Assembly (NCBI GenBank): GCA_951804945.1
Contig: OX638158.1
Span: 32,116,001-32,180,000 of the forward strand
DNA: 64,000 bases
Reading direction: 5' to 3'
Origin: Podarcis cretensis
Taxonomy: Eukaryota
Each line of letters begins with the position of its first letter. The first letter of the stretch is position 1. Shown in pieces: positions 4,321 to 56,729 of the stretch. The position numbers and the translations under genes are program-made. The notes beneath the pieces were generated by a model. It did no database searches. It was not told the origin of the DNA and worked only from the letters and a program-made list of their open reading frames with translations.

Positions 4321-4536
4321 ATGTGTGCTGTATTATTCCTTGGACGAGAATGGCAAGGTGGCTCACCTGTTTCTTCATGCGTGGGCAATATGGCTGGTAT
4401 GAAACATGATCAAAAAGTGATTCATTTGTGACCTAGGATTGATCTTTCTGTTTTAGCTACCAAGTTTAGGTATCAAGTCTCATATCACACAGTTCCCATG
4501 ATGTCACTACTCTCATTACTTACATACTTCATATGT

Positions 4537-4657
4537 GGGGAACCTCCAGATGCTGCTGAATTACAACTCTTATCATCCCTGGCAATTGGCCATGCTTGCT
4601 GGGACTGTTGGGAGTTGTAGTTCAGCAACATGTAGAAAGCCAAAGTTTCCCTACCCT
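4537..4657. mobile_element. Short palindromic MITE-like repeat (related copies ~5270-5370, 12860-12990, 49655-49770, 54825-54895)
   Basis: Fold-back GATGCTGCTGAATTACAACTC…GAGTTGTAGTTCAGCAACAT, recurring in the window. Confidence 0.65.
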
Positions 4658-4827
4658 TGATGTCCTTGGTCAGCACTCCTGATCAAATGACTGTTGATCC
4701 ATCCCACTTGTACGTACCACAATGACATTGGCATTGCTTACTGAAAAACAGTGTGGCAAGAATTTATTTCTACACCACTGGTTTGTTACCCAGGTGAGGG
4801 AACACATGAAATAAAAACATGGAACTA

Positions 4828-5069
4828 CAGTGGTACCGCGGGTTAAGTACTTAATTCGTTCCGGAGTTGCTTTCTTAACCTGAAACTGTTCTTAATCTGA
4901 AGCACCATTTTAGCTAATGGGGCCTCCTGCTGCCGCCACGCTGCCGGAGCATGATTTCTGTTCTCATCCTGAAGCAAAGTTCTTAACCTGAGGTACTATT
5001 TCTGGGTTAGCAGAGTCTGTAACCTGAAGCGTATGTAACCTGAAGCGTATGTAACCCAAGGTACCACTG
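4828..5069 (+). mobile_element. pogo/Tigger-like MITE (242 bp), family A
   Basis: TIRs CAGTGGTACC…GGTACCACTG with TA target duplication on both sides; multiple copies in window. Confidence 0.9.
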
Positions 5070-6434
5070 TAAGAGAATAAAAGCAAGTGCAACAGATCCA
5101 AGTTAGGGACCTAGTTTATTAACTACTGCACATGAGGACAAAACAACTTAGCAGGGTTGTTCTTGCCAAACTGCCAGTTAAGAGAGTCTGCCCAGAGGCA
5201 AATCAGAACAAAGCTTATACAGTATAGTAGTTCAAGCACAGCACTCTTAAAGAGTCATATAACATCAAACCTTCTACTTTACATCTACCCCAGCCAATAA
5301 GGCCAGGGGCCAGGGATGGTGGGAATTGTAGTCCAAAAGCATTTGGAGGTCCACAGGTTTTCCAACTGTAGTATAGACTGGCTAAATATGCTGATCATGC
5401 TTGATTTTTAAAAAATGATCATCAGCAGGAGAGAAGTCCAGAGGAAGATCTTCTGAAACTCTAATTCTGCCTACATGCAGTAAAGTGTGTGTAAAGGAGA
5501 GAGAGAAGATGTATGTAAACCATTAAACTTGCTGCATGGTTCACATTCATGCAAATCCTGCCTAATCTGAGAGGCGGTGCCTGTGCCATGCAAGAAGGTG
5601 GTTATGTACTTTATAAGCACATTGACAGTTCTTGTTGCTATTTAGAGATGTTAGCACATGGCCCATACATTCATGGGGCTTGTGCCTTATTACAAAGAGT
5701 TGTGTACAGTTAGCTTGGTGTACTTCACTATACCTCAGGTTAATCAGCTCTTCAGCCTCCCAGGCTTCTGTGGTAGCAAATTGTCACAAAGCAAATTGCT
5801 GTTTGAAGATGTCAATAATCACAATTTAGGGTTATAAATACATGTAACCATGATTGGCGCTTTTGGCCATATAGTATTGTAGTGCAACTTCATCTGAGAC
5901 AATATTTCAAATATGTGACTTAAAGCATTTCCCCCCCACCTGCTGCTGATGTGCAGGTGTAAAAGACGAAAAAAACAACAACCCTGGAGTGAAAGTTCAC
6001 AAAACGGCTTGCTGAATGCCTTGTGGAGGGATGGAAGAGGCCTGTAATTTTGTGGTGGTGTTTTTTTTAAATCAAAACTGGTGTCAGATGATTATACCCC
6101 CATTGCTGATCAAAGTGAGGGGAAGTACACAGCCACCGAAGAGTCTTAACTTTGAGAGGAAAAGGGGAAATGGAAGTCCATGGGATGGTGTGGGCCACAG
6201 GAAGTGCTTATTTTAGGATGTCACATGTACTGTTTACTAATAATTGGGACATTCATGCCATCACACACTGATTGGCATGAGGACTACTGAGGTCAGGCAA
6301 AGGACGTCAGACGAGCCCTGCCTGATCTCACTGTGGTCAGCCAGATGCCTGGGGGGAGCCACAAGCAGGACATGAGCACAAACGGTACTCTGCCCTCAGT
6401 CTGGATTCAGTCACTGGCTAGAAGGTCCAGAGGC

Positions 6435-7260
6435 TTTTCTCCCTCATAATATTAAAGCTGGGGAAGATGGCAGTGAAGCTGAATGTTAGAAGCACAAAGC
6501 ATAAAGGAAAGGAGGTACTTCTTTACACAGCACGTAGTTAAACTACAGAATACGCTCCAGTAAGATGTAGTGATGTCCACCAAGTTAAATGGCTTTAGAA
6601 GGATTGACAAACTCATGGAGGATAAAGCTAAGTCCTACCTCTGCCTTCAGAGGTAGCATTGTGTGTACAGTGGTACCTCAGGTTAAGTACTTAATTCGTT
6701 CTGGAGGTCCGTTCTTAACCTGAAACTGTTCTTAACCTGAAGCACCACTTTAGCTAATGGGGCCTCCTGCTGCTGCAGCGCCGCCAGAGCACAATTTCTG
6801 TTCTCATCCTGAAGCAAAGTTCTTAACCTGAGACACTATTTCTGGGTTAGCGGAGTCTGTAACCTGAAGCGTATGTAAACTGAGGTACCACTGTATCAGT
6901 TTCCAGGAAGTGCAAGTGGGGCCAGTGCCATTGCACTCAGGTCCTGCTTATGGAAAAGAATACTGGGCTAGATCCAGCTTACGTTCTCTTAGGGCTGCAA
7001 GGGACAGGGTTCTACAGGCCCTCTTCCATCCAAAGAAAAGGCTGCTTGGCTGTCATAAGAACATAAGAGGCTGCTGGATCAGGCCAGTGGCTCATCTTGT
7101 CCAGCATTCTGTTCCCACCATGGCCGACCACATGCCTGTGGGAAATCCCCAAGCAGGTTCTGAGCACAGGAGCCCTCTCCCCTCCAGCGGTTTCCAGCAA
7201 CTTGTATTCAGAAGCTTTGCTGCCTCTGACTCTGGAGGCATGGTCATTGTGGCTACTAAC
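6435..7260. mobile_element. Two CR1-clade 3'-end remnants in opposite orientation (+ ~6435-6990; - ~7055-7260)
   Basis: TTCTTTACACAGCACGTAGTTAAACTA…ATGGAGGATAA on +, and a CATAAGAACATAAGA tail on the opposite copy; boundaries approximate. Confidence 0.6.
6668..6893 (+). mobile_element. pogo/Tigger-like MITE (226 bp), family A, inserted in a CR1-type 3' remnant
   Basis: Same TIRs and TA TSD; one 16-bp subterminal repeat shorter than the 242-bp copies. Confidence 0.9.
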
Positions 7261-8069
7261 TACTCATGGTTTTCCCCAAGGATTGTCTTGTCAGTTGCCC
7301 CGAAACTGTAGTTAGGTGAAAGAAAAAACATACCGGCTGCAGTCATTGGTTAGTGGCTTAAGAACAGGTGGGAGGCTCCCCATCCCTCAGAGCAAGAGCA
7401 GACATAACAGCTACCCAGCTACCATCTGCTCTCAGAGTCACTGCCAAGTGGGGAGGGTGGCTATGCAAAAGTTAGGAAGAATCCAATTATATTTTTTAAA
7501 ACAATTCTTTACAAAATATTTGTACAAGTTGCTGAGAGCCTTAAGTGGCATGGGACATAAATTGAATAAATACATAACCGTTTGAAACTGTTAGGAAACT
7601 TTCTCAGTTTTTTGTTTTGTTTTCAATTTGTGATTAAGTGGTTTGCCATGTTTGGCTATGTATTTCTAACATGATCCAAATGCATTCGGCAGCTATGAAT
7701 GATCAGGTCTGGCAAAGCGCTGGAAAAATGCTTCCAAGTCTCTGTTAATTAGCTTCAGTTTTTACTGGTTTTAGTTTCTTCATCCAAACGCATAGGTTTC
7801 TAGATGGGACTCAACCACCTGGTCACCATCTGGTAATTCTGATATACTTTTTTTCTTTTAAGTGTATCATCACCATCATTCTATTTGACATTTTATTTTC
7901 TTCCCCAAAGGCAGCTGTTTCAGCTATTGGTGTATCATATCCACTGTGCCCAAGAGAACGGGCAACCAATCTGATATATTAAAGAGAACATTGGCTGTGA
8001 ACATGTTGGAGACTTGGGTTCAAATTCTCACTCAGCTATGGAGATCTATTCTATAGATCTGGTGGGACA

Positions 8070-10739: not shown

Positions 10740-11560
10740 TTTCCTGCGACCGAGCCCATTTCCTCTCGCAAGTTAGGTAACCGGCCCAGTTCTTTAGGGC
10801 CTGATTGGCTGCAGCGGGCGCTGTAAACCAGACCGACCCGGCCCTGTTTGTCATTGGCCAGCGGGGAGTGGGCGGGGCGGGCTGAAGAGTTCTGGGCTGC
10901 GTCCGTCTCTGATTGGCTGTTCCTCTGGCAGCCTCCCCCTGCCAGGAGTTGTTGAGCAACATCGCTCCGGGCTCCTCTTGTGACTTCTGCTGAAAGCCCG
11001 TTCTCCGCGCTCAGACACGCGGCCGGCCCTTCTCTTGGGAAGAAGAAACGGGATCGTCCTTCCCCAGCCCAAGGCGGGAAATGTCCAGCTGCAGCAGACT
11101 CGGAGCCCCTCCTGCCATGGATTTTCCTGAAGTGCTGAAGTCTCTTCTGGAGTACTCTGTGCCCTGGACGGGATCTCTGAAAGGTAGGATGGGCGCGCCA
11201 CTCCTTTTGCCCCAAAACCAGATTGGGAGAGGGAGGGGTGGCGGCATAATATATATTGGCTTTGGCTCTTCTTTAATTCGACCTAAGCCACGAGGATCGG
11301 GAAAGTCGAGAGGAGCGACACGTGCTGAGAGCCACACTTTTCTGGTGCTGCTACATTAGGTGTGGGTCGGGGAGGGGGCGGCCGGAGACTTTGGAAGAAG
11401 CTGTCAGATACGTGGTGGGTGTCTTGTGTGGATGGTCCGGTTTGATCTCTCAGCTCAAGCAACTGCTGCTGCTGCTGGAGCCGTTCTACTTGGGCATCAA
11501 AAACTCCCAGGATTTCCATACCTTTTAATTCCGCGAGCTCAGCTCCGGCGGATCATGACC
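10740..11560 (+). promoter_or_regulatory. TEF distal promoter/CpG island (exon 1a)
   Basis: CpG-rich. Three reverse CCAAT boxes (ATTGG near 10804, 10853, 10912), GC boxes GGGCGGGGCGGG near 10870, D-box-like GTTAGGTAAC 10772-10781, and E-box CACGTG 11319-11324 in the intron. Confidence 0.8.
11081..11183 (+). CDS. TEF: TEF alternative first coding exon 1a (distal promoter)
   Basis: Encodes MSSCSRLGAPPA-MDFPEVLKSLLEYSVPWTGSLK, resembling the alternative TEF N-terminus I recall (MDMPEVLKSLLEHSLPW). Ends at donor AAG|gtagga in phase 1, which joins exon 2 as G|AT = Asp. A second in-frame ATG at 11117 has strong Kozak context GCCATGG. Confidence 0.92.
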
Positions 11561-16269: not shown

Positions 16270-16830
16270 GAGAAAAGTGTGCTAAGGGAGGAAAATGAGA
16301 ATGAATTCAGCAGAGAAGCTGAATGAATTATTTGCATCTATTTTCATGGTGGAAGATGTAGGGCAGATCTGATCATCTGAACCAACTATAGCAGGATGAG
16401 AGTCTGAGGAACTGAAGCAAATAGTACTAACAAGAAATGAAGTTCTAGGCCATATGGACAATTTAAAATTCACAAATTGCCGGGTGCAGATGGTATCCAC
16501 CTGAGAGTTCTTTAAAAACTCAAATGCTGATCTTCTAACAAAAACATATACTTTGCTCCTAACATCAGCCTCCATACCTGAGGACTGAAAAGTGGTCAAT
16601 GTGACACAATTTTTAAAAATGAGAACCAAGGGGATTCTGGTAATTACAAGATTGCTAGCTTAACATCTGTTTGGAGAAAGCTTTATTAAAGCTAAAATTA
16701 CCAAGCATATGGAAGAACAGTTCTTGCTGAAGCAGAGGCGGCATGGCTTCTGCAAGGGTAAGAAGTCCTGTCTCGTTAAGGAATATGACGAAACATATAG
16801 AGATGATCCAATCAGCATTATATATTTAGA
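16270..16830 (+). mobile_element. Degenerate CR1 ORF2 (RT N-terminal) fragment
   Basis: Remnant motifs PGxDGIHxRVL, PEDW, NYxxxSLTS and HGFCKGKSC with frameshifts; boundaries approximate. Confidence 0.75.
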
Positions 16831-17239
16831 CCACTGGTTCTCAAAGGTTGTGGTGTGCCACACTGGTGTGGCAGGAGAGGATGGCAATATGGCAGGAAGA
16901 TTCAAAGATAATCAGTATTTTATTTAGGGAATGATTTGTGTTCTTATGTAGCTGAATTGTTTTATACTTTCTGGATGTCCCCTGATCATATTATAAACTA
17001 GTTGTGTTCTATGTTACAAATCAAGCACTGCCATGAGGTGTCTCTCCCCATGTATTTCTTACACACACAAAAATCGCTGGTGCAAACAACTTTTTATCTG
17101 AAAGTGTAGCCCAGAGAAAAAAGTTTCAGAACCACTGTGCTATGGAATTTATTCCCACGAGATGTGATGACTTGGGTGACTTTAAAGGAGGATAATGGCT
17201 ACTAGCCTGGATGTCTATGTTCTTCTACCTTTGCTGAGG

Positions 17240-21376: not shown

Positions 21377-21999
21377 TGCATATGGCATTAGCTAAATCCA
21401 GTCTGTTGAGAAATACTCCTGTTTGATACGCTTTCCTTCCTTGAACAGTTGTTCAGAGAATTCCAGGGACAAAGAAAATTACGTAATGTGCATTGGGTGT
21501 AGACACTCTGGCCCTGTCTCTGATGTGTGCAGCGAACACTACTTGAAACACAGTGGGGAGAGAAACGACCCTTTTGCCTTTTTAAGCCATGGGGGGGCAT
21601 ACATACCCTATTTGAAAAGGTTTTATTTAAATGGATTTCTGTATCGCTGTACTTTTACAAAATATGGCAAGCTCTTTTGCAGGTAACTGCTTCAAAAAGT
21701 GGAGAATAAGTTATTTAAATATGACAGAAACTTCCCACTGACAACCTTCCTTGGAGGTTTTTAGTTGGATGGCTATCTGCCATGCATGGATGCTTTAGCT
21801 GAGATGCTTCCATTGCACGGGGATGGACCCCCGGGGTCCCTTCCAACTTTACGATTCTCTGACAATGGGTGGATGCTATTTTTAAACGAAGTTCAGAGGC
21901 GTATGGGTGTGTATGGTAGGTGAAAGAACAAACTGTGCGTGTTCCTGTTTTCCTGCAGAGGGTGTGAGGGGCTGCCCCTTTTGGAAGCCTCATTGTTGT

Positions 22000-23200
22000 T
22001 GCTGCTGTTCCTGCTGTGAATGCGCTTGCTGGCCTCCAATTCGGCGAGCTTTGTGACCTCTAAAGACGCCAAGCTCCTCTTTCCGGGGCTGCCCCGCTGG
22101 GCCCCCTCCGCCGTCCCGGCACCCCTTTGGTCCCCTCATCTTCCACTCCCCCTCCTTCCCACGCAGGTGAAAAGGGCTCCGCCGCCTCCCTCGGCTGGTT
22201 ACCCTGGCGCGCACCCTTCGCTTCAAGGCTCACTTAAGGTCAGAGCCGCGGGTGCGCGCCGCGCGCAAAGCAATAGGCGTCTCGGCGGCATACCCGCCAG
22301 CGCGTGGGGCGGGGCCCCCATGCTAATGAGAAACTCACCCCTCCGCTACACGTGCCTGGCGGCCAGCCCCGCCTTCCCGGAGGCCCTAGCCAATCGCAGG
22401 GCGCAGAACGTGAGGGTGGCGACGCTGGGCTCATGAATAGTAAAAGCGCCTCGGGGCCCCCCGAAGAAGCCGCCGTCCGGAGCGGCGCACGCGCAGTCGT
22501 CGTCGTCAGTGTCGAGTGGTGGCGGGTCGGCCCCTCCCTCTCGCTTCGCGGGCGCCCCCTCAGCTGGCCTCGTTCGCTCGCCGCTCTCAGGGCCTTCACG
22601 GGGAGGGTGGGGGTGTCTCGGAAGCCGCCGCCCGCCGCCCGCTTGGTTATAGTATGTCCAGCCGTGCCGCGCACCAGGAAGCGGCGGGGACCGCGGGAGC
22701 CGCGCAGCAGGAGCGGGGCCTGGCGGGCGCCTTCCCCTTGGTGTTGAAGAAGCTGATGGAAAACCCGCCGCGGGACACGCGCCTCGGTGAGGGCGGCGGC
22801 GGCGGCGGGAGCGCGGGGGGCTCCGGGCAGGGCGGCCGCTGCGGAGCGAGCCGGAGGGTTGGAGGGGAGCGGCGCGCGCAGAGTCGCATCCATTTTGCGG
22901 CGCTCTGGCGCCCCGGTTTGTCCTTCGCCTGCCATGATCCGGGCGGCTTGTTTACGCGCCTGAGACGAGCAGCACCAGCCCCTCCTGCCCGCTTACGAGG
23001 GAGCAAGCCTCGCCGTGCAAACGTGCCTCGGGTGGCACCGCAAGGGGTCGTGGCGGAGGAGGCAAAACAACGGCTCCTCCCGCAGCGTTGAGGGGCCGAT
23101 TTGATATCCCGTTTCACCATAACCACAGTGGCAGCGTGGCTGCCAAAACTGCACACGGAAAGGCCAGGCGCTCTCTTCGCTGCGCCGCCCTTCCCGATCC
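22000..23200 (+). promoter_or_regulatory. TEF proximal promoter/CpG island (exon 1b)
   Basis: Very GC/CpG-rich. GC box near 22307, E-box CACGTG 22349-22354, CCAAT 22390-22394, E'-box AACGTG 22407-22412, and TTAAGGTCA nuclear-receptor half-site 22234-22242. Confidence 0.85.
22654..22786 (+). CDS. TEF: TEF alternative first coding exon 1b (proximal CpG-island promoter)
   Basis: [44 protein letters not shown] contains the TEF/VBP motif [14 protein letters not shown]. Donor CTCG|gtgagg, phase 1. With exons 2-4 it gives 897 nt = 298 aa + stop. Confidence 0.95.
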
Positions 23201-25290: not shown

Positions 25291-25617
25291 ATAAAGAGAA
25301 GAAGGAAAAACTTGAGGAAGATGAAGCGGCAGCTGCTAGTACAATGGCAGTCTCTGCCTCCCTCATGCCTCCCATCTGGGACAAAACAATTCCTTATGAT
25401 GGGGAGTCTTTCCACCTGGAGTACATGGATCTGGATGAGTTCCTGTTGGAGAATGGAATCCCTTCCAGTCCTACTCACTTGGATCTGAACCAGAACCCAC
25501 TGCTGCCTGTGGCTGAGCTGGAAGGAAAAGAACCTGCCAGTGTTTCTGCTGCTACCACCCCACTCTCATCATCTTCCACAGTGGTTTTCCAGCCATCAGA
25601 AACTACCACAAGTGCAG
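25291..25617 (+). CDS. TEF: TEF exon 2 (transactivation domain)
   Basis: Acceptor ttacatttag|AT. Translates (D)[57 protein letters not shown]...; donor GCAG|gtatgt, phase 1. Confidence 0.98.
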
Positions 25618-27254: not shown

Positions 27255-27475
27255 AATCCTCACCAGATAACGAGAGACTGACTCCCAGCCCTGTTGATCC
27301 AGAGTGTGTTGAGGTTGATGTGAATTTCAACCCTGACCCTGCTGATTTAGTGCTGTCCAGTGTTCCAGGAGGTGAGCTCTTCAACCCTAGAAAGCATAAG
27401 TTTGCTGAAGAGGACCTGAAACCACAGCCCATGATTAAAAAAGCCAAGAAAGTCTTTGTCCCGGAAGACCAAAAG
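27255..27475 (+). CDS. TEF: TEF exon 3 (PAR domain)
   Basis: Acceptor tttctttgccag|AA. Translates (E)[73 protein letters not shown]; donor AAG|gtaaca, phase 0. Confidence 0.98.
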
Positions 27476-27921: not shown

Positions 27922-28459
27922 TATTTTGCCTTGGTCAGACCACATCTTGAGTACTGTGTCCAGTTCTGGGTGCTACAATTGGATACAGTATTGACAAGCT
28001 TGAACTTAAGCAAAGGAGGGCAGCTATGATGATTGAGGGTATGGAAACCAAGTCTTATGAGGAAGGGTTGAGGGAACTGGATATGTTTAGCCTGGATAAG
28101 AGGAAACGTGAGAGGAGATATGACAGCTATCTTCAAATATCTTAAGGGCTGTCATATAGAAGATGGAGCAAGCTTGTTTTCTCCTGCATTGGAGGGTAGA
28201 ACCCAAACCAATGGATTCAAGTTACAAGAAAGGAGATTCCAACTAAACAGTAGGAAGAACTTTCTGACAGTAAGAGCTGTTTGACAGTGGAACAGACTCC
28301 CTCAGAAGGTGGTGGACTCTTCTTCCTTGGAGGTTTTTAAGCAAAGGTTGGATGATCATATGTCATGGATACTTTAGTTGAGATTTTCTGCATTGCAGGG
28401 GGTTGGACTAGATGACCCTTGGGGTCCTTTCCAACTTTACAGTTATATGACTCTATGAT
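27922..28459 (+). mobile_element. CR1 LINE 3' fragment in TEF intron 3
   Basis: Homologous to the 50.7-kb copy (GGAAGAACTTTCTGACAGTAAGAGCTGTT…TTCCAACT), with a degenerate tail. Confidence 0.92.
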
Positions 28460-28791
28460 CGAATAAAGCAAAATTACAGTATGTTCCACTAAATCCTGTT
28501 ATATAAGTAAACCCAGCTGTTGAAGTGGATGGTAACCACTGGAGCTGTTTTAAGATGTGTTCTGTCTGTTGATCAGGACTGTTCAATCTAGCAGATTGTT
28601 TCTTGTGCCAGATTTCTTGAGTAGTCCCCACATATGAGAAACAGCAATTATTCTGGAAGTTACTAGGGCATAGATAACTCTTGCTAAGCTGGGTTGCATA
28701 GCTGGTCATAAGAAGAGGCCAAATAGTAGGTACTTTTTGGCTTTTTGATACCTGAAGTATTTCACTATTGAACTGATTATTTTCTCTCTAG

Positions 28792-29007
28792 GATGAAAAA
28801 TATTGGACTAGGCGGAAGAAGAATAATGTGGCAGCCAAACGATCTCGTGATGCTCGTCGCCTGAAAGAGAACCAGATCACAGTCCGAGCTGCCTTTCTGG
28901 AGAAGGAGAATACAGCTCTGAGGACCGAGGTGGCAGAGCTGCGAAAGGAGATGGGAAAATGCAAGAACATTGTCTCTAAATATGAGAGCAGATATGGACC
29001 CTTGTAA
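28792..29007 (+). CDS. TEF: TEF exon 4 (basic region and leucine zipper), stop TAA 29005-29007
   Basis: Acceptor tttctctctag|GAT. Translates [71 protein letters not shown], a canonical PAR-bZIP C-terminus. Confidence 0.98.
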
Positions 29008-30853
29008 GCAAACCCTTTTCCCTTACTTTGTTCCTTGGCTTGCTCTGTTTCAATAGAGACTAATGTTTGTAGCTCGGTTGTTCTGTAACCGTGAACAGGA
29101 TCCACTTCTGCTGACACAACTTGGTCAGGTGCTTTCTGATCCTTGTGTTGCAATATGCCAATTTTTAATATTTTAAAAAACAAATTTAACACATTTTAAG
29201 AATTTGGTGTTTCTAATCAAATAACACTAATTTGATGACTTGAGGAATAAATCTGTCTATGTTACTAGACTGGCAGGTGTTTTACTGCTGTCATGTCTGG
29301 AATGAAAGGCAAATGGTTCGAAAGTATTTTGCTTTAAAACAAATCATATAATGTGGAAGGAATCATGCTGAAATAATTTTGTAATTGCTTCCTTTTCCAA
29401 GTTATACATATAAAATAATATGATGTGCAGGACTGATAGTTTTCTCTTACTTTGAGAACAAGTATGAATCTTCTTTTCAGTTCTGGGCCTTTTGATTCTT
29501 TTGGGCAGAAATGAGGCTTTGGCTTCAATCCTAAACGTGACTACTCAGAAGTAAGTCCTGTTGAATGCAATTGGACTTACAAATAAGTGGGGTTTAGATT
29601 GCAACCTTATCAGCTGTGTATCTGTCCAAACAACACTGCTGTGGGGGTATTACTTCTGAAAAAAATTATAAATTTCTTTGCATATTGTAAAATGGAAGCA
29701 TTTCCTCTTAATTGATTTGGATTTTTTTACTTTCATTTAAGCAATTTGTCTCCAAATCACTTGCATTAGTTTTTTTAACTAATATGAGTGGCTGTTGAGA
29801 AAATAACCATATTCACTTAAATTACAGGTTCAATTCATTATAGTAAATTCCTGCAATTAATTCTTCAAAGGAGTATATTTTTATTTTTATTAAAAAGTAA
29901 TGAGCCACAATATTTGTGACCTAGAGTTGTAGGGTAATATTAGTCCTGGGAGAGCTTGCTTTAGATCCATTAAAGTGATGCTTTGCTACAGTCTTGGTTC
30001 TGACCTGACCAATGTAAGAGGTGGGTGGGGCACATTACCTTGCTGCAAGCTATTTAATTTATTCATCCTTTTGGGTTGCCTTGCATATGGTTTCCCTGAC
30101 AGCTGCATGTCATGTCTCAAGCATATTTTAGTGCTTATCTTGAAAAGAACACACAAGGCTTTCCCCATAGCTGCTATTAGCTGCTAATAACCTCCTCCAG
30201 CTAAAGCAGCATACATTGGTGTAATCCTGGAGACCTTCTTCAAGGCCATTGGTTGCAAGGATACATAAGAATGTCAGTAATACAGAAGTAAGTGGGTACC
30301 TTGAATTTTAGCAGAGCCAGTTCAGGTGCACACATCCCCTTGTAGCAATTTTTTTCAGCATGTAATATGCTTTCTTAATGATCAAGGAGAGAAAAATGTC
30401 TGAATGCTGAACTAGCTTTCAGGCAGAATGGTGGTTTTTCTTAAAGGCAATGTTTGGGACATAGCTGCTGTTTTAGGATAATATAATCTAGATGTGCTGC
30501 AGCCAGTAACAGTCCTCCTTTGTGCCCACCCACTTTTTAAAGGGAGGTCACATTAGTAGTGTTAAAAAACACCAGGTATTGGGTATGGATCAACAGTTGG
30601 AAAAGCTCTACCATGGCTCATTGATAGAAATGGGAAGCAGTTTAATTTTGTGCAGTTAAAATAAATTTCCTAGAATTGTTGTTCCTTCTCGTGATACCTT
30701 GACTCAGCGGAGTGGTTTTACTTTCAGTGCTAGTGTAATGCTCCCCAAGTAGTCTGTTTCCTTTATAATAGGGAATTGGTAACATCCCTGAGAGTGAATG
30801 TAACAATATGCTGTTTTATAAATAGTCATATTCTTGCTTTGCTTTGTTTAAAG

Positions 30854-30875
30854 TGACTTATCCGATTCCGAGTGA
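30854..30875 (+). CDS. TEF: TEF alternative terminal coding exon, giving C-terminus ...YGP-FDLSDSE*
   Basis: Donor CCC TT|gtaagc at 29004 overlaps the TTG TAA stop. Acceptor ttcttgctttgctttgtttaaag|T GAC TTA TCC GAT TCC GAG TGA. Matches the alternative C-terminus I recall for chicken VBP/TEF. Confidence 0.8.
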
Positions 30876-32641
30876 TGCAACTTTAAAGACTCTTAAAATC
30901 ACAAAGAAACTAAAAACTACACATGAAACCACCTGCCATCAGAATGAATAGTGAAAGATGTGAGGTGTTCCACAACTGATGATGACCCTGCTTGCCTGCA
31001 AGTACCTCCCTCTGAACTACCCAAGGGCTGAGCATGATGAAAACACCAAGGTCTCTAAGGGTACATTTCTGTTGTACTGCTATTTTTCCTTGTACCCACA
31101 ACATGCAGTACAGTTATTAACTCTTTTCAATGACACTTGGTGCTCGTGTCCTTGAGTTCAGTTTGAATAATTAGTGGAGATCCTTTATTGGGAGGAAGGG
31201 GCAAGTATTAAGGGAATATAACTATAATTATTCAAGATTTCCTTCTGTGTTTCTTTTTCATATCTGTTCTGTGCTTTAGAATGGATATCAATATTGCAGC
31301 TAAATTCTGTTAATCTATTGTATCTTGTACTATTGGAACAGAAACAGCATATGTGGAAAACAGATTAAAAAGAAATAGTTTTGGTACACTATACAACCAA
31401 CATATCAATTAAAATAGAAGTAATGGAAAATAACACGTACCCCAAGATGCACTATATCTTAACAAATGCTAGCAAGTTAGATGCACCTTATTTTCTCAGC
31501 TGATTAAAGCTGACACTCACTTTCTGAAATTAGCACTTTTTCTTAAGCTTGCTGACTGACAATAGAATGATTGTGATGGCATGCTGATGCATTTTCACAA
31601 TCTACTCCTTGTAATAATCCTAAGAGATTTCTATTTCCTTACTTTCATAAACATAGATGTGTAATGAAGAGGGAGCAGTATAATAAAAGGACAGGTTGCA
31701 AAAGTAGGGTGACTCAGTTATTCACTCAGTTACTCATTTTATCTGCTGTTGCCTATCTTCTAAAAGATGCAAGTTCAACATCTAGTTTACTTTTTCTTGC
31801 TGAACAAATTGCCCAAAGTCTCTTATCAAAATTGGGGTGGCCTTCTGATTGCCCCAACTGAATAATTACAGAATAATTGCTGATTTTCACTTCTACCTGG
31901 TCCTGTACATGTTAGAAATAAAATAAGCAACGTTTATGCTGTTTCCCCCTACTATTTTTCCCTTAAAGATTTCTGAATTTCACTTGAGTGCCTGAACATA
32001 GTATGATGAGCATTGGACTCATTAATCTGAAGCATCAGACATAGCACAGTTGGAATATCCCATCAGATGCATGCCTATGTGGTAGCAGAACCTGTCGCGT
32101 AGACCCTAGGGACAGCAAAATGGCTTGTGGAAATAGGGCATTTCAATTCTGTAGAAGTTACACCCTGAACATGATCTACATGAAACTTGTAATGTGTCAA
32201 GAATAGATATATTTCAAAACTGGATAAAACCCACACCAATTTGTCATAGGACTAATGACTTGGTTAGCAGGCTTCCATCAGTTGATTAGGAAAGCATAGC
32301 ACAGAGGTTGCCAACTTTTTTAGGCTTGTGGGCACATTTGAAATTTTGGACAAGTGCACCATCCCTTCTGGCCACTTCCCTCAGCCAGATCAGCCTCCCC
32401 ACAGAAAGAAGATCACTTTTCCAAGTGATCTTATCCAGAATAATTAATCTGGGCCTTGCAAAGGACATGGAGCTAAAAGAGAAAGTGGAAATAAGCATCA
32501 TGCTTCCAATGCTTCCAATTTCCTCATTCAGCTCTATGCATTCCAGCTCATTAAAAGGGCAGAAAGTAAGAGGGGCTCATTTGGCCTGTCGGAACCATGG
32601 GAAGACCTCAGAGGCACTATTGTGCCTACAGTTCAATGCTG

Positions 32642-32880
32642 ACAATATTTTTATAACATTATACTGTTTCAAAATTCATAAACAGAAAACATGTGCATGG
32701 AGTCATGTGCATGGATGTTCCATTTATTCAATTATTAATTTGTGACTCCATGCACATGTTTTCTGTTTATGAATTTTGAAACAGTATAATGTTATAAAAA
32801 TATTGTCAGTACATTATTAGCCAACGTGTTGCTTGTTGTTGTTTAGAGTGCTCTGTTTGCAACACGGGATTTTTTTGGTG
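32642..32880. mobile_element. Unclassified 239-bp insertion with 15-bp TSD and internal perfect 67-bp inverted repeat
   Basis: Direct repeat TACAGTTCAATGCTG at 32627-32641 and 32881-32895; arms 32639-32705 and 32743-32809 are exact reverse complements. Confidence 0.75.
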
Positions 32881-35657
32881 TACAGTTCAATGCTGGCAAT
32901 CCCTGCTTAGCACAAGAGGCTTCAAGATTGCTGTTTCAGATTCAGAAGTTGGACTTGACAGGAAAGTCCCAACACAACTATGCTAGTAGATTACATTTTG
33001 CAAAACACTGATTTTCTGCTGTTTTCAAAGCGTAACCCCCACAAAATTAAGAAATTGCCTGTACTATTTTAATTGTTTGCGATTAATGCACCAGTGTGCA
33101 TATTACTTAGTAAAATTGACTGTGGGCTCTTTATAGAATCTCTCAAAAGTTGGAGAAGATTGGTATAACGATTAAATACACACAGAAAGAAAATAATATC
33201 AGAATTGTAGTACTAATCCAAATGATGTGCTACATACCCTTATAACTTGCAGTTGGAGCCAGATTTCCAATACCTGTGTGTGTTACATTAGAAATGTAAT
33301 ATATGGCTCTTCATGATAGCTGTTAATAATTTAATTCTCCAGCCATTTTATAGCACAAAACAACTGAAATAGAATATGAATTCCCACATTTAATGTGCTT
33401 TGGTTAGTCACTTGGATGATTTGCATGTGTTGTACAACACGATGCAAAGGTTATGTGTGTAACTTTACGTGTACCTTTGTGTAGGAAGATGAAGTAGTTG
33501 TAATACTCTTCCCAGGAAAAACAAATGAGACACATTAAACATCATGTGACTTTATAACTTTGTTTCTTTAAAATGCATTATTTCTTTGGTATGGGAGGTA
33601 GATAATATATCATTAGCATAACCAGGTCTTCCACCTTCTTCTTCATCTTGGTAACCAATATATAGTGATAACAGTAGACAATAATGTTCTTAATTTGCAC
33701 TAACGTTTAACATTAATTTGTCCAAAGAAATAGTGCAGGATGCCTGCTATAAGTATGCAAACTCTTCTACATACTGCTGTTTAATTATATAATGGAATTA
33801 CCAGAGTGTGATCTGTAGGATTACAGACCTTGCTGGGAACAGTTTGAGGGGAACAGTAATCTCTTTATGGTTACCCAGTTACTATCAACATGCCACTGAA
33901 GATCCAAGGGTTAACAACTTTTAATTTTTTAATAAATATTGTGGACAAGAAAGAAAATCTTCAAAAGCAAATAATCTATATAATAGAGAATTTTGTTATG
34001 GTAATCTTAATGTACATGATCATCCCCTTGAGAGAGATTGAAATAAAATATCCCCCTAACTGAATTTCATCCATAGATGAAATTAATTGAATAATAATAA
34101 TAATTTCTAAATAATAATTTAGAAGCTGATCTTCCTTTTCTTAAAGATTTCATTTCATTGTACAGGCTTAGCATAGGCATTTAACTCTGTTTATTGGTTT
34201 TTAATCATTCTTTAATAGTCATGTGAGATTTCTACTTTGCAACTAGAGCAATGATTTAGGTTTAAGGGATAATTTGTGGTTCTGTGATCAATCTCTGTGC
34301 AGGTTTCATGTGAAATTTTGGTGGAGTTTTCCCTTATTCATTACTTTTGTATCATTCATTCAAGAAGTAATGGAGGCATATATTTAGTGCTGTGGGTGCT
34401 GAAGCCTTTATAAGTTTTTATATTAAACCTATGATATTAATCTTGGTTGCTGTTTTGTATAAATTCCCAATGTCTTTGCAGGTGGGTTTTTTAAAAAAAG
34501 ATATTCATTGGCACTTTCCCTTTCTGTGCTGTGTTGTGCTGTATTGTGCCGAATAACCAGGTATTCTAGATGTAGAGCTTGCTTCTAGTACTCCCTAGTG
34601 GGCAGTCCTTCTGTCAGGTATCAAGATAACAGGTGCAGTAAAAGAGAACCAGCAGCTAAAGCTTACAGAGATACTGTAAAATTGTTAAGAGCAAATATAT
34701 TTTGAATAGTTAAGACATACTAGAATCTGTGGTGTTGTTTTTTTACAGAATTCCTAAACACCTCTGGGCCATAAGCATCTAGTTCAATGTTTTTTCTACC
34801 CCCCACCCCAAAAACAAAAAAACCCCCAGAATTTGGGGATGTTTTAACACATATACTCATGTTGAGGCTGATTCACCCACTAAAGGCAGCTATACAAAAC
34901 TGAATTGTTTCAACTTCTAGAGTAACAGAAATCTTTCAAATCTGAACCTTTGCTAAGGAAAAAAAGGCGCATTATCTATCTTTTTGTATATGCACATCTG
35001 CTTTCCTGGAAAAATGTGTACACTGATTCACTAGTATTCATATACTCTTCAGCTAAATATCTACTTCATGTATTTCATGTGTGCACCCTTTTAGATCTGC
35101 GTTTTTAAATGCTCACCTAAATTTTGTGAGTGTGATAACCATGTGTTTGCAAACATACATCATGCAGACACACTTAATATATAATTTTATATCCTGCGTA
35201 TACATAATAATAATTAGAATAATTTTATTATTTATACCCCACCTATCTAGCTGGGTTGCCCCCAATAGTCTCCCATCCAAATAATTGATCAGGTCCACAC
35301 CTGCTTGGCTTCACCTGCAATGCTGGAGCCTCAGGCATCCATGGACACATCTCCAGGCAGCCTTGATTAACTGCACCTCATTATGGAGCACACAGTCTGT
35401 GACAGATCTGAGGTTTGCCTCTGTGCAGTGTGCATAGCCATGACAATGCTGGCAAATCAAAAATTCTTAACTGATTACTGTCCCTTTTTTAGTTTGAAAA
35501 CCAATTAGAGAGAGAAGATAGATGTGACCTGTATAGAGCAGTGAGATTTGTTTGGAAGAAGCTTCATCTTGTTCAAGCATGTTCTTTAAAAACAAACAAA
35601 ATAAAATATCAAAAAACTGTGTCGCAAGTTTGCAGCCCAGCCAGGTGTGCATGTGGC

Positions 35658-36005
35658 CAGGGGCGGAGGAAGGGAGGTGCGATGGGGGCAGGTTGCCCCA
35701 GGTGTCTTCGCTCAGGGGGGTGACATTCGGTGTGCTGCCGAAGCCTACCCCAAGCCGTCGGGGGAAGGGGGGAGCTGTGCCACTTTGCTGGCAGCATTCC
35801 CCCCTTCCCCCTTCGTTTTGACAACTGGGGGGGGGGGCGAATGTCCGCCCTCAGTGGCTCCCTCCACCCCCAGCTGCAGTGCGCGTGCACCGCTCTGTGC
35901 ACCCGAGTGGCTATTCTGTGCCTGGGAGGGCACCCTCTGTGCCGCGTTCTGACCCCCTCGGGAGCACGCCCACCCTGGGCAGCACTGGCATATGCTCCGC
36001 CGCTG
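35658..36005. mobile_element. GC-rich hAT-type MITE with 8-bp TSD
   Basis: TIRs CAGGGGCGGAG/CTCCGCCGCTG; perfect TSD CATGTGGC at 35650-35657 and 36006-36013. Confidence 0.85.
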
Positions 36006-45861: not shown

Positions 45862-46133
45862 AATAAAAAATAAATATGCCCTTCTGGGCAGAAAAGAAAT
45901 GAGACAAGCCTTAAGGCAAGTGGGGATGGCATCCCCTTTGCCTCTTCCTCCCCAACACTTGATCAAAATACAAGAAACAAAGGGAAGCCACCCCTCTCCC
46001 CTCTTCTTTCCACCCCATCAAAATGTCCTCCCGAGCGAGGAAAAGAAGGAAGGTAGAGCCATCCCTGCTTCACTCCCCACACCATGCCATCCAGGGCAAG
46101 AAAATGGGGGGGGGGGAGCACCCTCACCATGTA

Positions 46134-46364
46134 CAGTGGTACCTCGGGTTACAAACACCTCGGGTTACAAACACTTCGGGTTACAGACTCCGCTAACTCG
46201 GAAGTAGTACCTCGGGTTAAGAACTTTACCTCAGGATGAGAACAGAAATTGTGTGGCGGCAGTGGGAGGCCCCATTAGCTAAAGTGGTACCTCAGGTTAA
46301 GAATGGTTTCACATTAAGAACGGACCTCCGGAACAAATTAAGTTTGTAACCAGAGGTACCACTG
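46134..46364 (-). mobile_element. pogo/Tigger-like MITE, reverse orientation
   Basis: Same TIRs and TA TSD; interior is the reverse complement of family A. Confidence 0.88.
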
Positions 46365-48373
46365 TATTTCCCCCTCCCCAAATAAAACTGATATCCAGTG
46401 CTAGAAAAATGAGGAAAGTAAACCAAGAGGCCAGCAGGAAACCAACCATGCCACTTATCTGTCCCCCAGAGGAGAGAAGGAGTTCACTGCCCTGCCAACT
46501 GGAGTGAAAAGGGAGGCCCTCTCTACTTCCACAACTGCTTGGCATGCAGAACAATACCTATAGTTTCCCAGAGCGTTACTGGATGCCCCAAATCTCTTCC
46601 ATTTTGCAAAGAAAGCCAGTAAATTAATATATACTGTAGTTCTATTTATGAAGCATCCCCCTCCCCTAAAACATTACTCCCTTGGGAATTACCGTAAGTG
46701 AAATTAAGATTTATGCCTAAAACTGCACCCAGCACAGGGGCAGGATGTTCTGAACTTTTGTCAAAATTTCTACTTCAGACATTAGGCTGTTTGATTGCTG
46801 TAGACCACTTTTGGTCTCTGATGACAACGAAAAGTCCCCTGCCCTCTTCTGCATTGATCTGGTTGATCTGCAGACAGGAGCTAGAGCTATTTGCCTTGGT
46901 GCTGGTTGATTCAGCAACAGCCAGCCCAGGGAGTGGAGTGGATGAGCAGGGCTTTTGAGAGAAAGCTGGTCACATGTAGCCTCTTTTAGCAGGCATTCTC
47001 TTGCTCCTGACCATCTGTCTCTCCCTCTCTGTTCAGCTGATGGGGCGATTCTAGGGGTGTTAGATTCCCTATTCACTATGGTGCAGTTTCCACCAACATC
47101 CTGCTCTGGTCGCTCTGGGTGGGAATGGCAGTGGAGTGACCTTTCTAATATTACTATGAGAGAGAGGGGGGGGGGACTGCCAGTACTGCGGGGGAATGGG
47201 GATTAAGGAGACACACCAGGATCAGGAAAGGGGGATGGGTGGTGGCTGAAATGAGGAGGTGTACAACCTTTGGTGTTTGAGAAAAAATCTTCCCCAGCAG
47301 AGATAAGTGCCAGCTCAGGTGACCATACTTGCTGCTAGGATGATGAGGCACCTCCAGAGTGTGGCCTGGACGTCAGAATCTCTAGATTTACCTCAGCTTT
47401 TTAGTGTTGCTGGTTGTCTAACGAAGTTACAGTGAAGGAATTCTTATACTCCTTTCAACAAAACTTTGCAATATCTTATTCCTCTGCTTGGAACTATGAG
47501 AAGAGCTAGAGGAGAAGGGGGGCGGTGGCAAGAGATGAGCTATAAAAATAGCTTTGTCCGATGGCTGCGGCTGTTCCACTCACTGCCTGTAATCCACCCT
47601 GTGGCATCCTGGCTCCCATGTGCACTGTGTGTTACATAATGGGAGGCACTCGGGCATCACTTCAGCCTCAGAAAAGGGAAAGGGAAAGAGTGACGTGACA
47701 TTTACACCGCTTGCGCTTCCCAATATGTTCCTCCAGCTGGGCTTTCCAAAGCATGTCAATGCTGAGCTGCTTTCAGAGGGGTTGATAGGCACCCAGAGAG
47801 CGTGAAAATAAAGCATTTCCATTTTGCACCAGAGGGCAGTGGCGGTTGACGTGGGTAGGGGTAGTAGAATGCCTTGTTCGAGAATGAATATAATTTGAGG
47901 GAGCAGGAAGGGGGTCAAAGAAGAAAAAAAACTCTAAGATGTCCTGTTAGGAGTATTTACTGTGGAAAGATTAAGCCATTGGCAAGTGTCCAGGGACTAG
48001 GTTGCTTTGAATGAACAAGCCATTTTATAGTCTATAAAATATAGTACTAACTGCCACATGCTCAAAATAGGTTTCAGTGTTTGGAAAGGGAGGGCTTAGT
48101 TGGAATAATACATGGGGATTTGCTCGTGTGGGGAGGTTTGCGTGCACCCCCAAAGGAGTTAGGGCTGTGTACATACCACACATTTAAAGCATGTGACTTC
48201 CCCCTGAGAAACCAGAAAACTGTGGTTTGTTGAGGGTGCTGTGAATTATAGCTCTGTAAGGAGTATAGTTCCTAGGATTCCTGGAGTGTGTGTTTTAAAT
48301 GTGTGGTGTAATATTGGGTCTTTCCTGGGTTAGAACAACTGGCCAGTGATCTGCAGAGAGTCCTGTCTTACAC

Positions 48374-48409: not shown

Positions 48410-50707
48410 AAACACGCACAAACAAATACACACACTCTCACAGTCCAAGCCTTCGGCCTCCTCACATTTTGCCATATGGTTTTCAGCAGAGTGGAGTACC
48501 AAAAAAGAAAAAGAAAAAATACTGCTTCTCAGCTTCACTTTTGGCTTCTATTGCCTCCCAATGTCAAGCAGCACAAACTTCTGTGAGGCTTCCTGCCAGG
48601 AATACTCAGCTGCAGCAAAAGGGGTTCCCTCTTCTGTGTTTCTCTCCTGGAAGCTTTTATTGAGCTACTCGTCCTAATTCATTCTCTGAAGAAGGATCTG
48701 GAACTGGTAAGTACTGAGTAAAAAACAGGCCAGTAAGGAAGTTCCAGAACTCCATATGGGGTGGAGAGATGGGGTTGAGTCCAGAAACTCCCAACCATGG
48801 ATCATGGAATATTTGGTCAATTAATATATAGAATAATAGTACCAAAGTAGTATGGAAAGGGCAATTGGTGAGCACTCCAATATTCACAGTAGGGAAATTC
48901 TTTTATTAGGAACAACCCAAATGACCTGCTGAACACTGGCCTCTTCCCATGCAGTTGCAACTAATGTTTTGTTGGCAAAAGGTAATCCAGTTTGGGTTGC
49001 ACGTAAATGTCTACAGCCAGACTCTCTTGGGCCTGCAGTGATGAATCATTTTATTTTAAAATTTAATATGCATGTGTTTGAACAGCATCTGTGGAATCAG
49101 ACCCACACGTATACTATACAAGGAGAAACAGCAGGGCTCTGTCGATGGCAATCAAAGGACCAAATGCTGAGTGTTTACTTTGTCCTGGCTGCCTTGTCTG
49201 AGATCAACAGTGACTGTAGATTTTCTCATTGTTCCATTGAAATAATATATATTGATTAGTCAACAGAAGTGAGTCCAGTGTGCATATAGTTCAAGTGGTT
49301 TTGTTAATTTCATTTAAATCCTCTGGTAGTGTTGGGTGGGAAGCGAAAACACAATTTGCAAGTAGGCCGGTCTTGGTTGCAGTCTTTTTATCCCAGAGTT
49401 GATCATTTACATTAGTGGGGAGGTGAAGACAGCCTTTTCAGGGCTGGGGACACCTTTAGGCCACACATACCTCATGGGGCCCACTTCTTAAAAGCGTAAT
49501 ATATATTTGTATGGTGGTTGTGTTGTTTTTGCAACCTGTGTAGTTCAAGCTGTGACCCAGTAGTGGGTTCCAAACCTGCAGCAATTACCTAACGATGTTA
49601 GGTAATTGGATTGGAGTTGCAGCCCTAGCTTCTGAAATAGGTAAGAAGAACCTATGGCCTTCCATTTGTTTTTGGACTGCATCTGTGTCCATTGGCCATG
49701 CTAGCTGTGGATGATGGGGAGCTGCAGATTCTGACAACATCTGGAGGGTCATAGCTTTCCCACCTCTGCTCTAGAAAGCTTAAAGGATGAGGACTGGTGA
49801 CTCTATAAGGATGTTTCAGCCCTTCTAAAGTAAATATTATTTAGTGACATAGTTAAATTACCCTGGTGTAGTGCTTTACAGGAACCTTTGTTCTGCTCTG
49901 TTCTCATTGGTTATGACAAGGAAAGACTCACATGACTGGAGAAACTTTCTTGAGCAAGTTGGATTATGAGCAGCTACTTACGGTAAGTTTTCTTATGTTC
50001 TGCTTTACAGAAACAGCTGCCTCTGAGAGGACTTTGATGAGGCCCCAGAGAAGGGAAGTGGGGGGTGATGTAGGATGGTTTGTCCCTCCTGAATATTGCT
50101 GCCTCATTGGATTTATAAATAACATTCTTAATACCTTGGTTGCTAATTGTTTGTTAAGTATTTCCAGAAAGAATGAAGCAATTTCCAAGAACTATCATCA
50201 TTGGCAAGGGAGATAGTTTGCTATGGAAGCCTTTAGTCCTTTCATATGCCTATTGTTCTCTACATTTCCAGTATTTTTTATTAATTGTCCAAGATCCTCT
50301 CTCTGTGCCTAAGAAGAAAAATAGGCATTTACAATCTTAAGTAGTGCCATGGATATGATATGGGGTGCTCCTCATAGGTAGTTTCAAATGCTTGGGAACA
50401 GTGACCCCAATCAGCAACTCTGCATGGCAGAGAGGCTGCAGTTACTGGAATGTCTCCAGGAAAGAAGGGTAGTAAGATATGGCATTGGGGTGTCAAATGC
50501 AACAGTCAACCTGGCAATTCCCCATTAATTCAGCAGTGAGGTTGCCAGCCTCTTTTTCCAGCAAGGTTTTTCAGCCTTTATCAGATGCATTAAAGACATA
50601 AATTCAACATTTCAGCCTTTTCCTAGTATGGAGATACAGTATTAGGAAATCTCCTCCTCCTCCTTTTTCCTCCAGGTTAATGTTTTATTATTAATTCAAT
50701 AAATTAA

Positions 50708-51185
50708 CGGACAAACTGGAACGTGTCCAGAGGAGGGCAACTAAAATGGTCAAAGGCCTGGAAACGATGCCTTATGAAGAACGGCTAAGGGAGCTGGGCA
50801 TGTTTAGCCTGGAGAAGAGGAGGTTAAGGGGTGATATGATAGCCATGTTCAAATATATAAAAGGATGTCACATAGAGGAGGGAGAAAGGTTGTTTTCTGC
50901 TGCTCCAGAGAAGCGGACACGGAGCAATGGTTCCAAACTACAAGAAAAAAGATTCCACCTAAACATTAGGAAGAACTTCCTGACAGTAAGAGCTGTTCGA
51001 CAGTGGAATTTGCTGCCAAGGAGTGTGGTGGAGTCTCCTTCTTTGGAGGTCTTTAAGCAGAGGCTTGACAACCATATGTCAGGAGTGCTCTGACGGTGTT
51101 TCCTGCTTGGCAGGGGGTTGGACTCGATGGCCCTTGTGGTCTCTTCCAACTCTATGATTCTATGATTCTATGATTCTATTCTATG
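50708..51185 (+). mobile_element. Young 5'-truncated CR1 LINE (ORF2 C-terminus, 3'UTR, (ATTCTATG)n tail)
   Basis: Uninterrupted ORF 50746-51093 ([23 protein letters not shown]…[27 protein letters not shown]) is the CR1 ORF2 end; the octamer tail is present. Confidence 0.95.
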
Positions 51186-54463: not shown

Positions 54464-56374
54464 TGGGGAGCTTATAATCTCTGCAGCAATCTGTAATACC
54501 AGCATCTGGGGCTGGATTTGGGGCACATGCAGCAGCATTTGTGATGTCAGTCTAATTTGTGAATGAGCGTAAAATGGTTGCAAAACCATGAATCCTATAG
54601 GCACCCTTGTCAATCAGTCATGGTTGATGGCATCTCCCTTTACTTCCTGCAGTACAGTCATTACACATTACAAAACTCAAATTGACACCAAAACCAGCAT
54701 CCCCATAGTTTTCAGCTTAGCCAGGGTCCAATGTCATCACAATGTGTGAATACCCACCTCATTGTGTAGATCACATCGTTGGATGGTGGGGACAGGAAAT
54801 GCACACTGTAATGAAGCCCATCCATGTTGGCCAATAGGCAGGGGTTATGGATGTTGCAGTCCAACATTTGAAGGAACACAGGTTCCCCACCCCTTCCTCA
54901 AGGACTAACAAATTTATAAAGACATTATGCCAAGCAATTCTTTGTTAGCTTTCCTGCAAAATATGCCTATCCTCCTGAAAGAATGAGGAGTACACAATAG
55001 ATCGGAAACAAAGATCAGAGGTAATCAGAAAAATATGTAAGAGATCCATTCTTCTATATGCTCCCTAAAATTCACAAGGAAAGCTTCTCTTTGCTAAGTA
55101 GACCTGTTGTATCAAAATCAGGATCTATTTGGGGGCTATTTTGGAGCCTTTCTTGATTCCTTTCTACAAGACTTTGTGCAGCAGAGCCCATCGTTTATTT
55201 AAGATACAAAACATTTTATCAAGGGAGTGGATTGTATGCCTCCACTTTCATACTGATCTAAACACTGCTGCTGCATGCGTTTGGCATTGTGATGTGATGG
55301 CAACAGCAAGCTGAGACAGATTCCTGTGGGTTGTTCATCCTCTGCCTCCTGCATAAGAGAGGTAGAAATGTGACTTGCCTTGGAACTCTGGAGACACATA
55401 TTGTAGATGGCAGTCAGAGGCCACATGCACACCACATATTTGTAGCGATATTATGCCACTTTAAACAGTCATGGCTTCCTGCAAACAAAGAATCCTGGGA
55501 AGTACAGTTTGTTAAGGATGCAGAGTCATCAGAAGAGCCACATTACCCCCACAGAGCTACCATTCCCTGGGAAGGGATGGACTGATTGTGCTGTAGGGAA
55601 TTGTGATGCTGAAAGACTACATGGCAGCTGTCGAGGCGCATCATTCCAATCATTAACCAAAAGAATTGGAACAACCCAGCAGCTTCTATCCCATTTGTGG
55701 TTGCGTTTGCTGAGCACAAGTTAAACGTAATAGTATTGCTTGCCGCGATATAAAACACTTCTCCTACTCATGATTTATGGATTGAAGTTTTAAATATTAA
55801 CACAACATAAATAGGCCAAATAGCTTTTATCTTCACTGACTCAAAGGCTCTTCTTTAAACGAACATAAAATCCTTCCTTTTGTAGATAAAGATGCCCATC
55901 TGTATTGCTCATGAATAAAGTCTCATTTACTTTGAAAAACTTAAATCACACTTGCCATGCTGGGAGGACAGTAACAAGCAATGATACTTTTTCTGGAGTC
56001 AGATACAGAAACCTGAAGGTTGAATTGAACTTTGCTTATTATCTCGATTTGTCTCTCCTGCTGCACACTTCCCATTCTGTCACTTGTTGATCTCCCAGGG
56101 GGTGGGGGGCAAAGCTTGGCCTTTTAAAATTAGCGGTTATATCCCACCATTCCTCCAAGGAGCTCAAGGCAGAATACATGATTTCTCTTACCTGTCCGTC
56201 CCCCCCCCCCCCCGCAGTCGATTTTAGCCTTGCAACCACTCTGTGCTGTAGGTCAGGCTAAGACCACCAGCCCTAGTATTTCACGACCAAGTAAGGATTT
56301 GAACCTAGTTCAGCATCAGTGGACTGTCCTAGTCCTAGTCCAGCATCATAACCATTACACCACAAGAAAAGCCC

Positions 56375-56643
56375 ACTGGGCCACAGCAGTGTCCCACCTA
56401 GTTCTGCATTGTGTTCTCAGTGTGGCCAACAAGATCTCCATGGGCAGCCTGCAAGTGGGTTCTGAGTGCAGCTCCTGCGGTTTCCAGCAACCGGGTATTC
56501 AGAAACATACCGCCTCTGGCAGTGGAGGTAGAGCATAGTCATCAGGGTTAGTGGCCACTGGTGGCCAGCTTTATTCTCCATAAGTGTGTCTCTTGAAAAA
56601 CCATCCACGTTGGTGACCATCAACTGCCTCTTGTGGGAGCAAA
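56375..56643 (-). mobile_element. CR1-clade 3' remnant, same family as 7055-7260
   Basis: Shares GGTTTCCAGCAAC…GTATTCAGAA with 7189-7213. Confidence 0.6.
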
Positions 56644-56729
56644 CACACCAGCTCTTGGTAACAGGGGGCTTTATGGAAGCAGGCCTTAATGAGAACATTA
56701 CTCTTTGGACATGAGTACCCCATCCTCAT

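Follow-up and report, generated by a model that had tools for sequence, protein, structure and literature searches.

The TEF locus

The window analysed here, a stretch of 64 kb (64,000 nucleotides) of the Podarcis cretensis genome, contains the gene TEF (Table 1). Indeed, exon 4 encodes a C-terminal bZIP domain (Pfam bZIP_2, E 8.1e-17; bZIP_1, E 1.6e-7) that is 100% identical to Anolis TEF over 71 amino acids in a protein search, and exon 3 encodes a block that is invariant across 22 aligned TEF proteins, which we take to be the PAR region of PAR bZIP proteins and which has no separate Pfam match. The gene is TEF, not HLF or DBP, as the named top matches are TEF proteins and the spliced products show exact identity with Podarcis TEF proteins; this agrees with the identity proposed in an earlier note on this DNA. 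Exons 1a and 1b each sit in a CpG-rich stretch.

Table 1. Features of the TEF gene in the P. cretensis window (window coordinates).
Feature	Position	Strand	Remarks
First coding exon 1a, MSSCSRLG...MDFPEVLKSLLEY type	11081..11183	+	Donor AAG/GTAGGA; coding part only; spliced proteins identical to P0121 and P0122
First coding exon 1b	22654..22786	+	Donor TCG/GTGAGG; coding part only; with the tail, spliced protein identical to P0133
Common exon 2	25291..25617	+	Canonical AG/GT borders; frame open in all four models
Common exon 3, most of the PAR region	27255..27475	+	Splice models; conserved block in the TEF protein alignment
Exon 4 coding part, basic region and leucine zipper	28792..29007	+	Ends in YGPL and a stop if unspliced at 29004
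Alternative 5' splice site CTT/GTAAGC within the last Leu codon and TAA stop	29001..29009	+	
Alternatively removed intron, 1850 nt	29004..30853	+	At least its start is 3'UTR of the L-ending form
TGCAATA 7-mer (miR-25/92 seed match, chance level)	29149..29155	+	
AATAAA and downstream GU-rich stretch; may serve the L-ending form as intronic poly(A) signal	29246..29251	+	
Pyrimidine tract (30831-30849) and AG acceptor (30852-30853)	30831..30853	+	
Terminal exon 5, coding part: T GAC TTA TCC GAT TCC GAG TGA	30854..30875	+	F-D-L-S-D-S-E and a stop; exact matches P0121 and P0133

TEF is under the control of CLOCK/BMAL1, with which two CACGTG E-boxes fit, one at 22349, which precedes the start codon of exon 1b by about 300 nt, and another at 11319, just after exon 1a. 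A perfect palindromic PAR/D-box site, ATTACGTAAT, was also found at 21478-21487, some 1.2 kb ahead of the same start codon, with a second match at 47631-47640 (two sites, or three strand matches, against 0.55 expected); autoregulation is possible. No neighbouring gene was recognised among the long open reading frames in 1-8000 and 36000-64000 (of at least 110 amino acids for the latter), and there is a modest rise in CpG counts around 46000-48000 and 56000-58000. Short frames at 16282-16927, 27951-28284 and 50695-51093 resemble what we take to be ends of LINE (CR1-type) reverse transcriptases; the three pieces tested gave no Pfam match.

Alternative N- and C-termini

The last codon and the stop codon of exon 4 contain a splice donor. 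In brief, positions 29002-29010 read TTGTAAGCA, which includes the Leu codon TTG (29002-29004), the stop TAA (29005-29007) and a GT at 29004-29005. AAAG precedes the 22-nt terminal exon, and splicing across 1850 nt gives a protein ending in ...YGPFDLSDSE. The donor CTT/GTAAGC matches the donor consensus CAG/GTAAGT at six of nine positions, and the other four donors of the gene score 5, 6, 6 and 8. The donor word alone means little, because GTAAG occurs 48 times on the + strand of the 64-kb window. TRA stops lie inside the GTRAG donor consensus, and a stop within a donor is a common consequence of this. A tail with the conserved pattern, as taken from homologues, is reached from only one of the 417 AG dinucleotides in 29004-36000. 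The earlier note had proposed that the TEF stop codon doubles as a donor for a 22-nt exon encoding FDLSDSE, and every coordinate of this proposal proved right, the spliced protein being the same as database proteins. That the tail splice is real and conserved is, in our judgement, practically certain.

The exons of the window were joined by coordinates in a script, in four combinations of first exon and C-terminus, and all four gave open frames, of 288, 294, 298 and 304 amino acids. Three of them are letter-for-letter identical to listed RefSeq Podarcis TEF proteins, namely P0122 (X4), P0121 (X3) and P0133 (X1, XP_053262718.1), so that no protein-level difference from the RefSeq isoforms exists for three of the four. 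The remaining combination, exon 1b with the L end, has no exact counterpart among the matches listed and is one residue shorter than isoform X2 of P. muralis (P0126). The scheme of two first exons by two C-termini put forward for this locus is therefore borne out by three exact matches and by a fourth within one residue of that of a congener. The RefSeq Podarcis TEF X1-X4 records (XP_053262718.1, XP_053262720.1, XP_053262721.1 and those of congeners) are predicted (XP_) models. The tail exon had been called hidden, which did not hold, as it is already annotated in isoforms X1/X3 in Podarcis and in many other species. The FDLSDSE isoform itself is already known and deriving it again adds little; what is useful is the comparative pattern, a modest new evolutionary lead.

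Distribution of the tail in tetrapods

The tail was looked for in annotated proteins, not in genomic DNA, from protein listings that comprise the best 120 clusters per search with up to 15 members each; clade counts were made by hand on named entries, leaving aside unnamed entries and fish. Among the matches listed, the tail was found in squamates (22/47), birds (26/62), turtles (7/16), the tuatara (1/1) and crocodilians (3/5, one more entry having extra residues). The tail frame is kept in sauropsids other than Podarcis, as far as annotated proteins tell, and its retention there had been named in advance as a check. Duck, swan, goose, ratite and songbird entries carry FDLSDSE, and no chicken entry is among the matches listed. 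The tail is also present, among the matches listed, in monotremes (4/8), marsupials (2/27), frogs (16/44) and salamanders (4/4). Amniote tails read FDLSDSE, with FDPSDSE in echidna; frog tails read FDFSDSE, LDFSDSE, FDFYDSD and LDFIESE, and the salamander tail reads LELSDSE. Altogether, 72 of the 263 entries examined end in [FL]-[DE]-[LFP]-x-[DE]-S-[DE], and 43 of them exactly in FDLSDSE.

None of the 128 placental TEF entries among the matches listed has the tail: 119 end at L and nine end otherwise. Furthermore, 22 unnamed mammal-type entries among the matches listed all end at L. A comparison of placental with other entries gives a Fisher p of 1.6e-21, on which we do not rely since the entries are related and several belong to the same species. 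The tail was likely lost in placental mammals, as judged from these annotations, although the marsupial count of 2/27 illustrates that sparse annotation can hide a tail.

Eighteen same-species pairs were picked by hand, the condition being that both forms were listed; within each pair the two proteins do not differ before the last codon. The last residue changes from L to F in 13 tetrapod pairs and from M to I in a mormyrid pair, and these changes place the junction inside the last codon, after its second base.

Other ends were seen as well. Bird, alligator and turtle models (P0023, P0027, P0031, P0667, P0669) continue after GPF into other, species-specific sequence, as if the same donor had been used with different acceptors or a further splice had followed the tail exon. 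Another group of entries (P0185, P0204, P0609, P0264, P0265), of which the named ones are placental, has unrelated ends after ...AELRKE that are neither acidic nor shared; this break suggests a cryptic donor inside the zipper.

Distribution in ray-finned fish and age of the switch

A gar protein among the unnamed representatives prompted a search of ray-finned fish, of which the best 120 of 2196 matches (including P0412-P0529) were considered. Among the matches listed, an extension follows G-x-L in 34 of the 37 entries named 'family member a', two of these 37 being from bowfin, and in none of the 42 teleost tefb ('member b') entries. The fish extensions among the matches listed are seven residues long in 39/56 and net negative in 55/56. 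For bowfin, eel, cichlid, mormyrid and bichir, the listings contain both a tailed and a short protein of the gene, the bichir short form being a partial homology model. Amphibians, sauropsids, monotremes, marsupials and ray-finned fish all have annotations of both ends for this one gene, with the last codon as the point of divergence. Beyond length and charge, the fish tails cannot be aligned with FDLSDSE, and the bichir tail LELDIE resembles the salamander LELSDSE. It is the shared junction, not the sequence, that points to a common origin of the fish and tetrapod exons.

From annotated proteins of tetrapods and ray-finned fish, we infer a switch of single origin that dates back to the bony-vertebrate ancestor, which lived about 430 million years ago, and that has disappeared from placentals and from teleost tefb. 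The age of the switch is, on the evidence of these protein annotations, underrated by the earlier note, since it is not confined to sauropsids. A fuller version would hold that, since the bony-vertebrate ancestor, splicing has switched on and off an acidic seventh heptad that gives TEF a distinct activity state at D-boxes, and that this was lost twice independently, in placentals and in tefb; we hold this version tentatively and find it somewhat doubtful. If it is true, human and mouse have only the short one of two states between which TEF still switches in other vertebrate groups, and birds, reptiles, amphibians, fish, monotremes and marsupials keep a switch that makes for a testable clade difference in clock-output control.

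Evidence for spliced RNA in other species

Sixteen tail-bearing reading frames found only in Logan, chosen by hand from assemblies of other species' sequencing runs, contain the motifs of exon 2 and exon 3 through to the tail on contigs of 1249-4487 nt; two of them (P0014, P0070) are of squamate type. The distance from exon 2 to the tail is 5.6 kb in the P. cretensis genome, against 1.2-4.5 kb for the contigs, and because such a span is covered these contigs are most simply spliced RNA. Spliced, tail-coding TEF RNA thus most simply exists in other species, although any single entry could be a processed gene copy. The zebrafish GenBank entry AAC00211.1 also ends in the tailed form. For P. cretensis itself, use of the tail is suggested by the annotation of identical proteins.

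These data bear on whether the junction could be splicing noise at a chance donor, spread by annotation pipelines. A last codon ending in G before TAA, TAG or TGA always creates a GT, the donor word is frequent in the window as stated above, and some annotations join the donor to other acceptors and so gain unrelated tails (P0023, P0027, P0667). However, noise would have to account for an identical amniote tail, for amphibian and fish tails that are divergent but patterned, for tail-coding contigs from sequencing runs and for the tailed zebrafish entry. Conservation largely refutes this reading, which we regard as highly improbable.

The 3' end of the mRNA

Two AATAAA hexamers lie in the intron, at 29246 and 30660; a shuffled intron is expected to contain 1.46, so two is no excess. 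The first one, with its GU-rich stretch, could end the L-ending mRNA about 240 nt past the stop; deletion of 1.85 kb of 3'UTR by the splice presupposes an L-ending mRNA that extends through the entire intron. The miR-25/92-type TGCAATA that had been noticed in this 3'UTR lies where it was placed, but is at chance level: the heptamer, which we take to be a miR-25/92 seed match, occurs 17 times in the window against 14.9 expected, and at least once in 261 of 1000 intron shuffles. An Rfam search of 28700-36000 gave no match. Downstream of the tail stop TGA, the frame at 30876-30893 reads CNFKDS, and a bird-type Logan protein (P0021) has CNFKDF, so conservation between lizard and bird seems to extend into the first part of the 3'UTR. 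Readthrough of the tail stop, as the WCNFKDF of P0021 might be taken to mean, was considered and rejected: it is a single entry, and the gene caller more likely took TGA as Trp.

Conceivably, the splice persists because of what it does to the mRNA (to its 3'UTR length, its poly(A) site, its stability or its rhythmic decay), with the peptide as a by-product. It would swap up to 1850 nt of 3'UTR, the intron holds a candidate poly(A) signal at 29246, and the first 15 nt past the tail stop encode CNFKD in the lizard and in the bird-type Logan frame, which argues for conservation of the flanking RNA. Nevertheless, a by-product would not keep seven residues and a net negative charge across tails that otherwise differ between tetrapods and fish, and the sole UTR element proposed, TGCAATA, is at chance level. 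We consider a role confined to the mRNA improbable.

A putative switch at the end of the zipper

In the reading that we prefer, the last splice choice of TEF adds an acidic heptad whose likely role is to tune the distal end of the zipper; taken as a whole, we give this statement an even chance. Use of the donor in the final Leu codon joins the 22-nt exon and yields a protein ending in FDLSDSE, and skipping of the donor yields one ending in L. Two outcomes would compete, splicing at a donor of middling strength and failure to remove the intron, by retention or by polyadenylation at 29246. The tail is predicted to start at heptad position d after a Gly-Pro helix break and may pack against the last two heptads of the zipper, which would alter dimer stability or partner choice and, in turn, transcription from D-boxes.

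In the TEF zipper, I-L-L-L-C-Y occupy the d positions, and the following d is taken by the terminal L or F. The tail thereby extends the zipper register by precisely one heptad; it carries a charge of -3 next to two heptads whose net charge is +2, and similar charges are seen in zebrafish, bowfin and frog. An AlphaFold2 model of the tailed isoform of Rhineura, based on 22 aligned sequences, has a helix at 219-285, the Gly-Pro break and a short helix at 290-293; pLDDT is about 64 at this short helix, pTM is 0.27, and in this monomer no packing of the tail is visible.

Alternatively, the tail could be a docking motif or a (phospho)degron for a kinase, ligase or cofactor, which would set the half-life or activation of TEF and not affect the zipper. 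The tail is C-terminal, follows a helix break and is of low confidence in the predicted model, and its pattern recurs as counted above, with most instances exactly FDLSDSE; the near-invariant FDLSDSE of amniotes fits binding to a partner no less well than an effect of charge. The CK2 consensus is S/T-x-x-E/D, and S-D-S-E, which fits S-x-x-E, is present in all amniote tails listed. However, the first Ser is replaced by Tyr in Ascaphus and by Ile in two other frog entries, and most fish tails have neither Ser nor an aromatic residue, so that the CK2 reading fits amniotes but, to judge from the sequences, not some frogs and most fish. Moreover, the titles and opening lines of abstracts seen in the literature on PAR bZIP proteins, CK2 and TEF showed nothing about the tail. 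We regard docking or degradation as rather unlikely.

TEF has mostly been studied in mouse, human and zebrafish. Mouse and human appear to lack the tail, the listed zebrafish Tefa entries are tailed and the listed teleost tefb entries are not, so D-box studies that set Tefa against Tefb, or fish against mouse, may be confounded by the C-terminus; no paper testing the tail was found. A switch of seven residues, or one heptad, would be cheap to test.

Comparison with known systems

The literature covers related points. Two zebrafish tef isoforms arise from separate promoters (PMC2935359), and the part of that paper seen makes no mention of splicing or of the C-terminus. Placentals are without photolyases, and according to the part of PMC12716789 that was available, Tefa, Tefb and Dbpb all activated more strongly with 6-4 photolyase, the follow-up having used Tefb. 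Loss of photolyases was considered as a cause of the loss of the tail and rejected, since Tefa, Tefb and Dbpb respond alike in that account and Tefb is without a listed tail. The string FDLSDSE in PMC2492807 belongs, in the passage retrieved, to an unrelated bacterial ABC-transporter-like sequence. No paper was found on the conservation or loss of the TEF tail or on its C-terminal exon, in a search that covered 1990s VBP work and old and subscription literature thinly.

Within vertebrates, placental TEF shares with the lizard gene the bZIP, the G-x-L end and alternative N-termini, and differs from it in having no tail in the 128 entries listed. Unnamed representatives, which we take from their HGPL or HGAL ends to be HLF- or DBP-like, stop at L (a thin sample). 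Teleost Tefa and the TEF of gar, bowfin and bichir are like that of the lizard in carrying an acidic extension after the same G-x-L, several of them with both ends, and teleost Tefb is unlike it in having no extension among the matches listed.

Composite terminal exons with intronic polyadenylation, and retained last introns, likewise have a 5' splice site inside a terminal exon, and its use or non-use alters the C-terminus. TEF differs from them in that one residue is swapped for seven and that intronic polyadenylation is only a candidate.

A close parallel is chicken VBP/TEF, whose second C-terminus is probably FDLSDSE; at the Podarcis locus, the L and FDLSDSE C-termini both match listed proteins. 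The chicken gene was described in the earlier note as having alternative isoforms, and this is supported by the title of Burch and Davis 1994 (Nucleic Acids Res 22:4733, PMID 7984425), as given in the references of PMC6496933, which reports four isoforms from alternative promoters and splicing. Judging by that title, the orthologue makes its four isoforms from two first exons and a splicing option, and the lizard locus has both.
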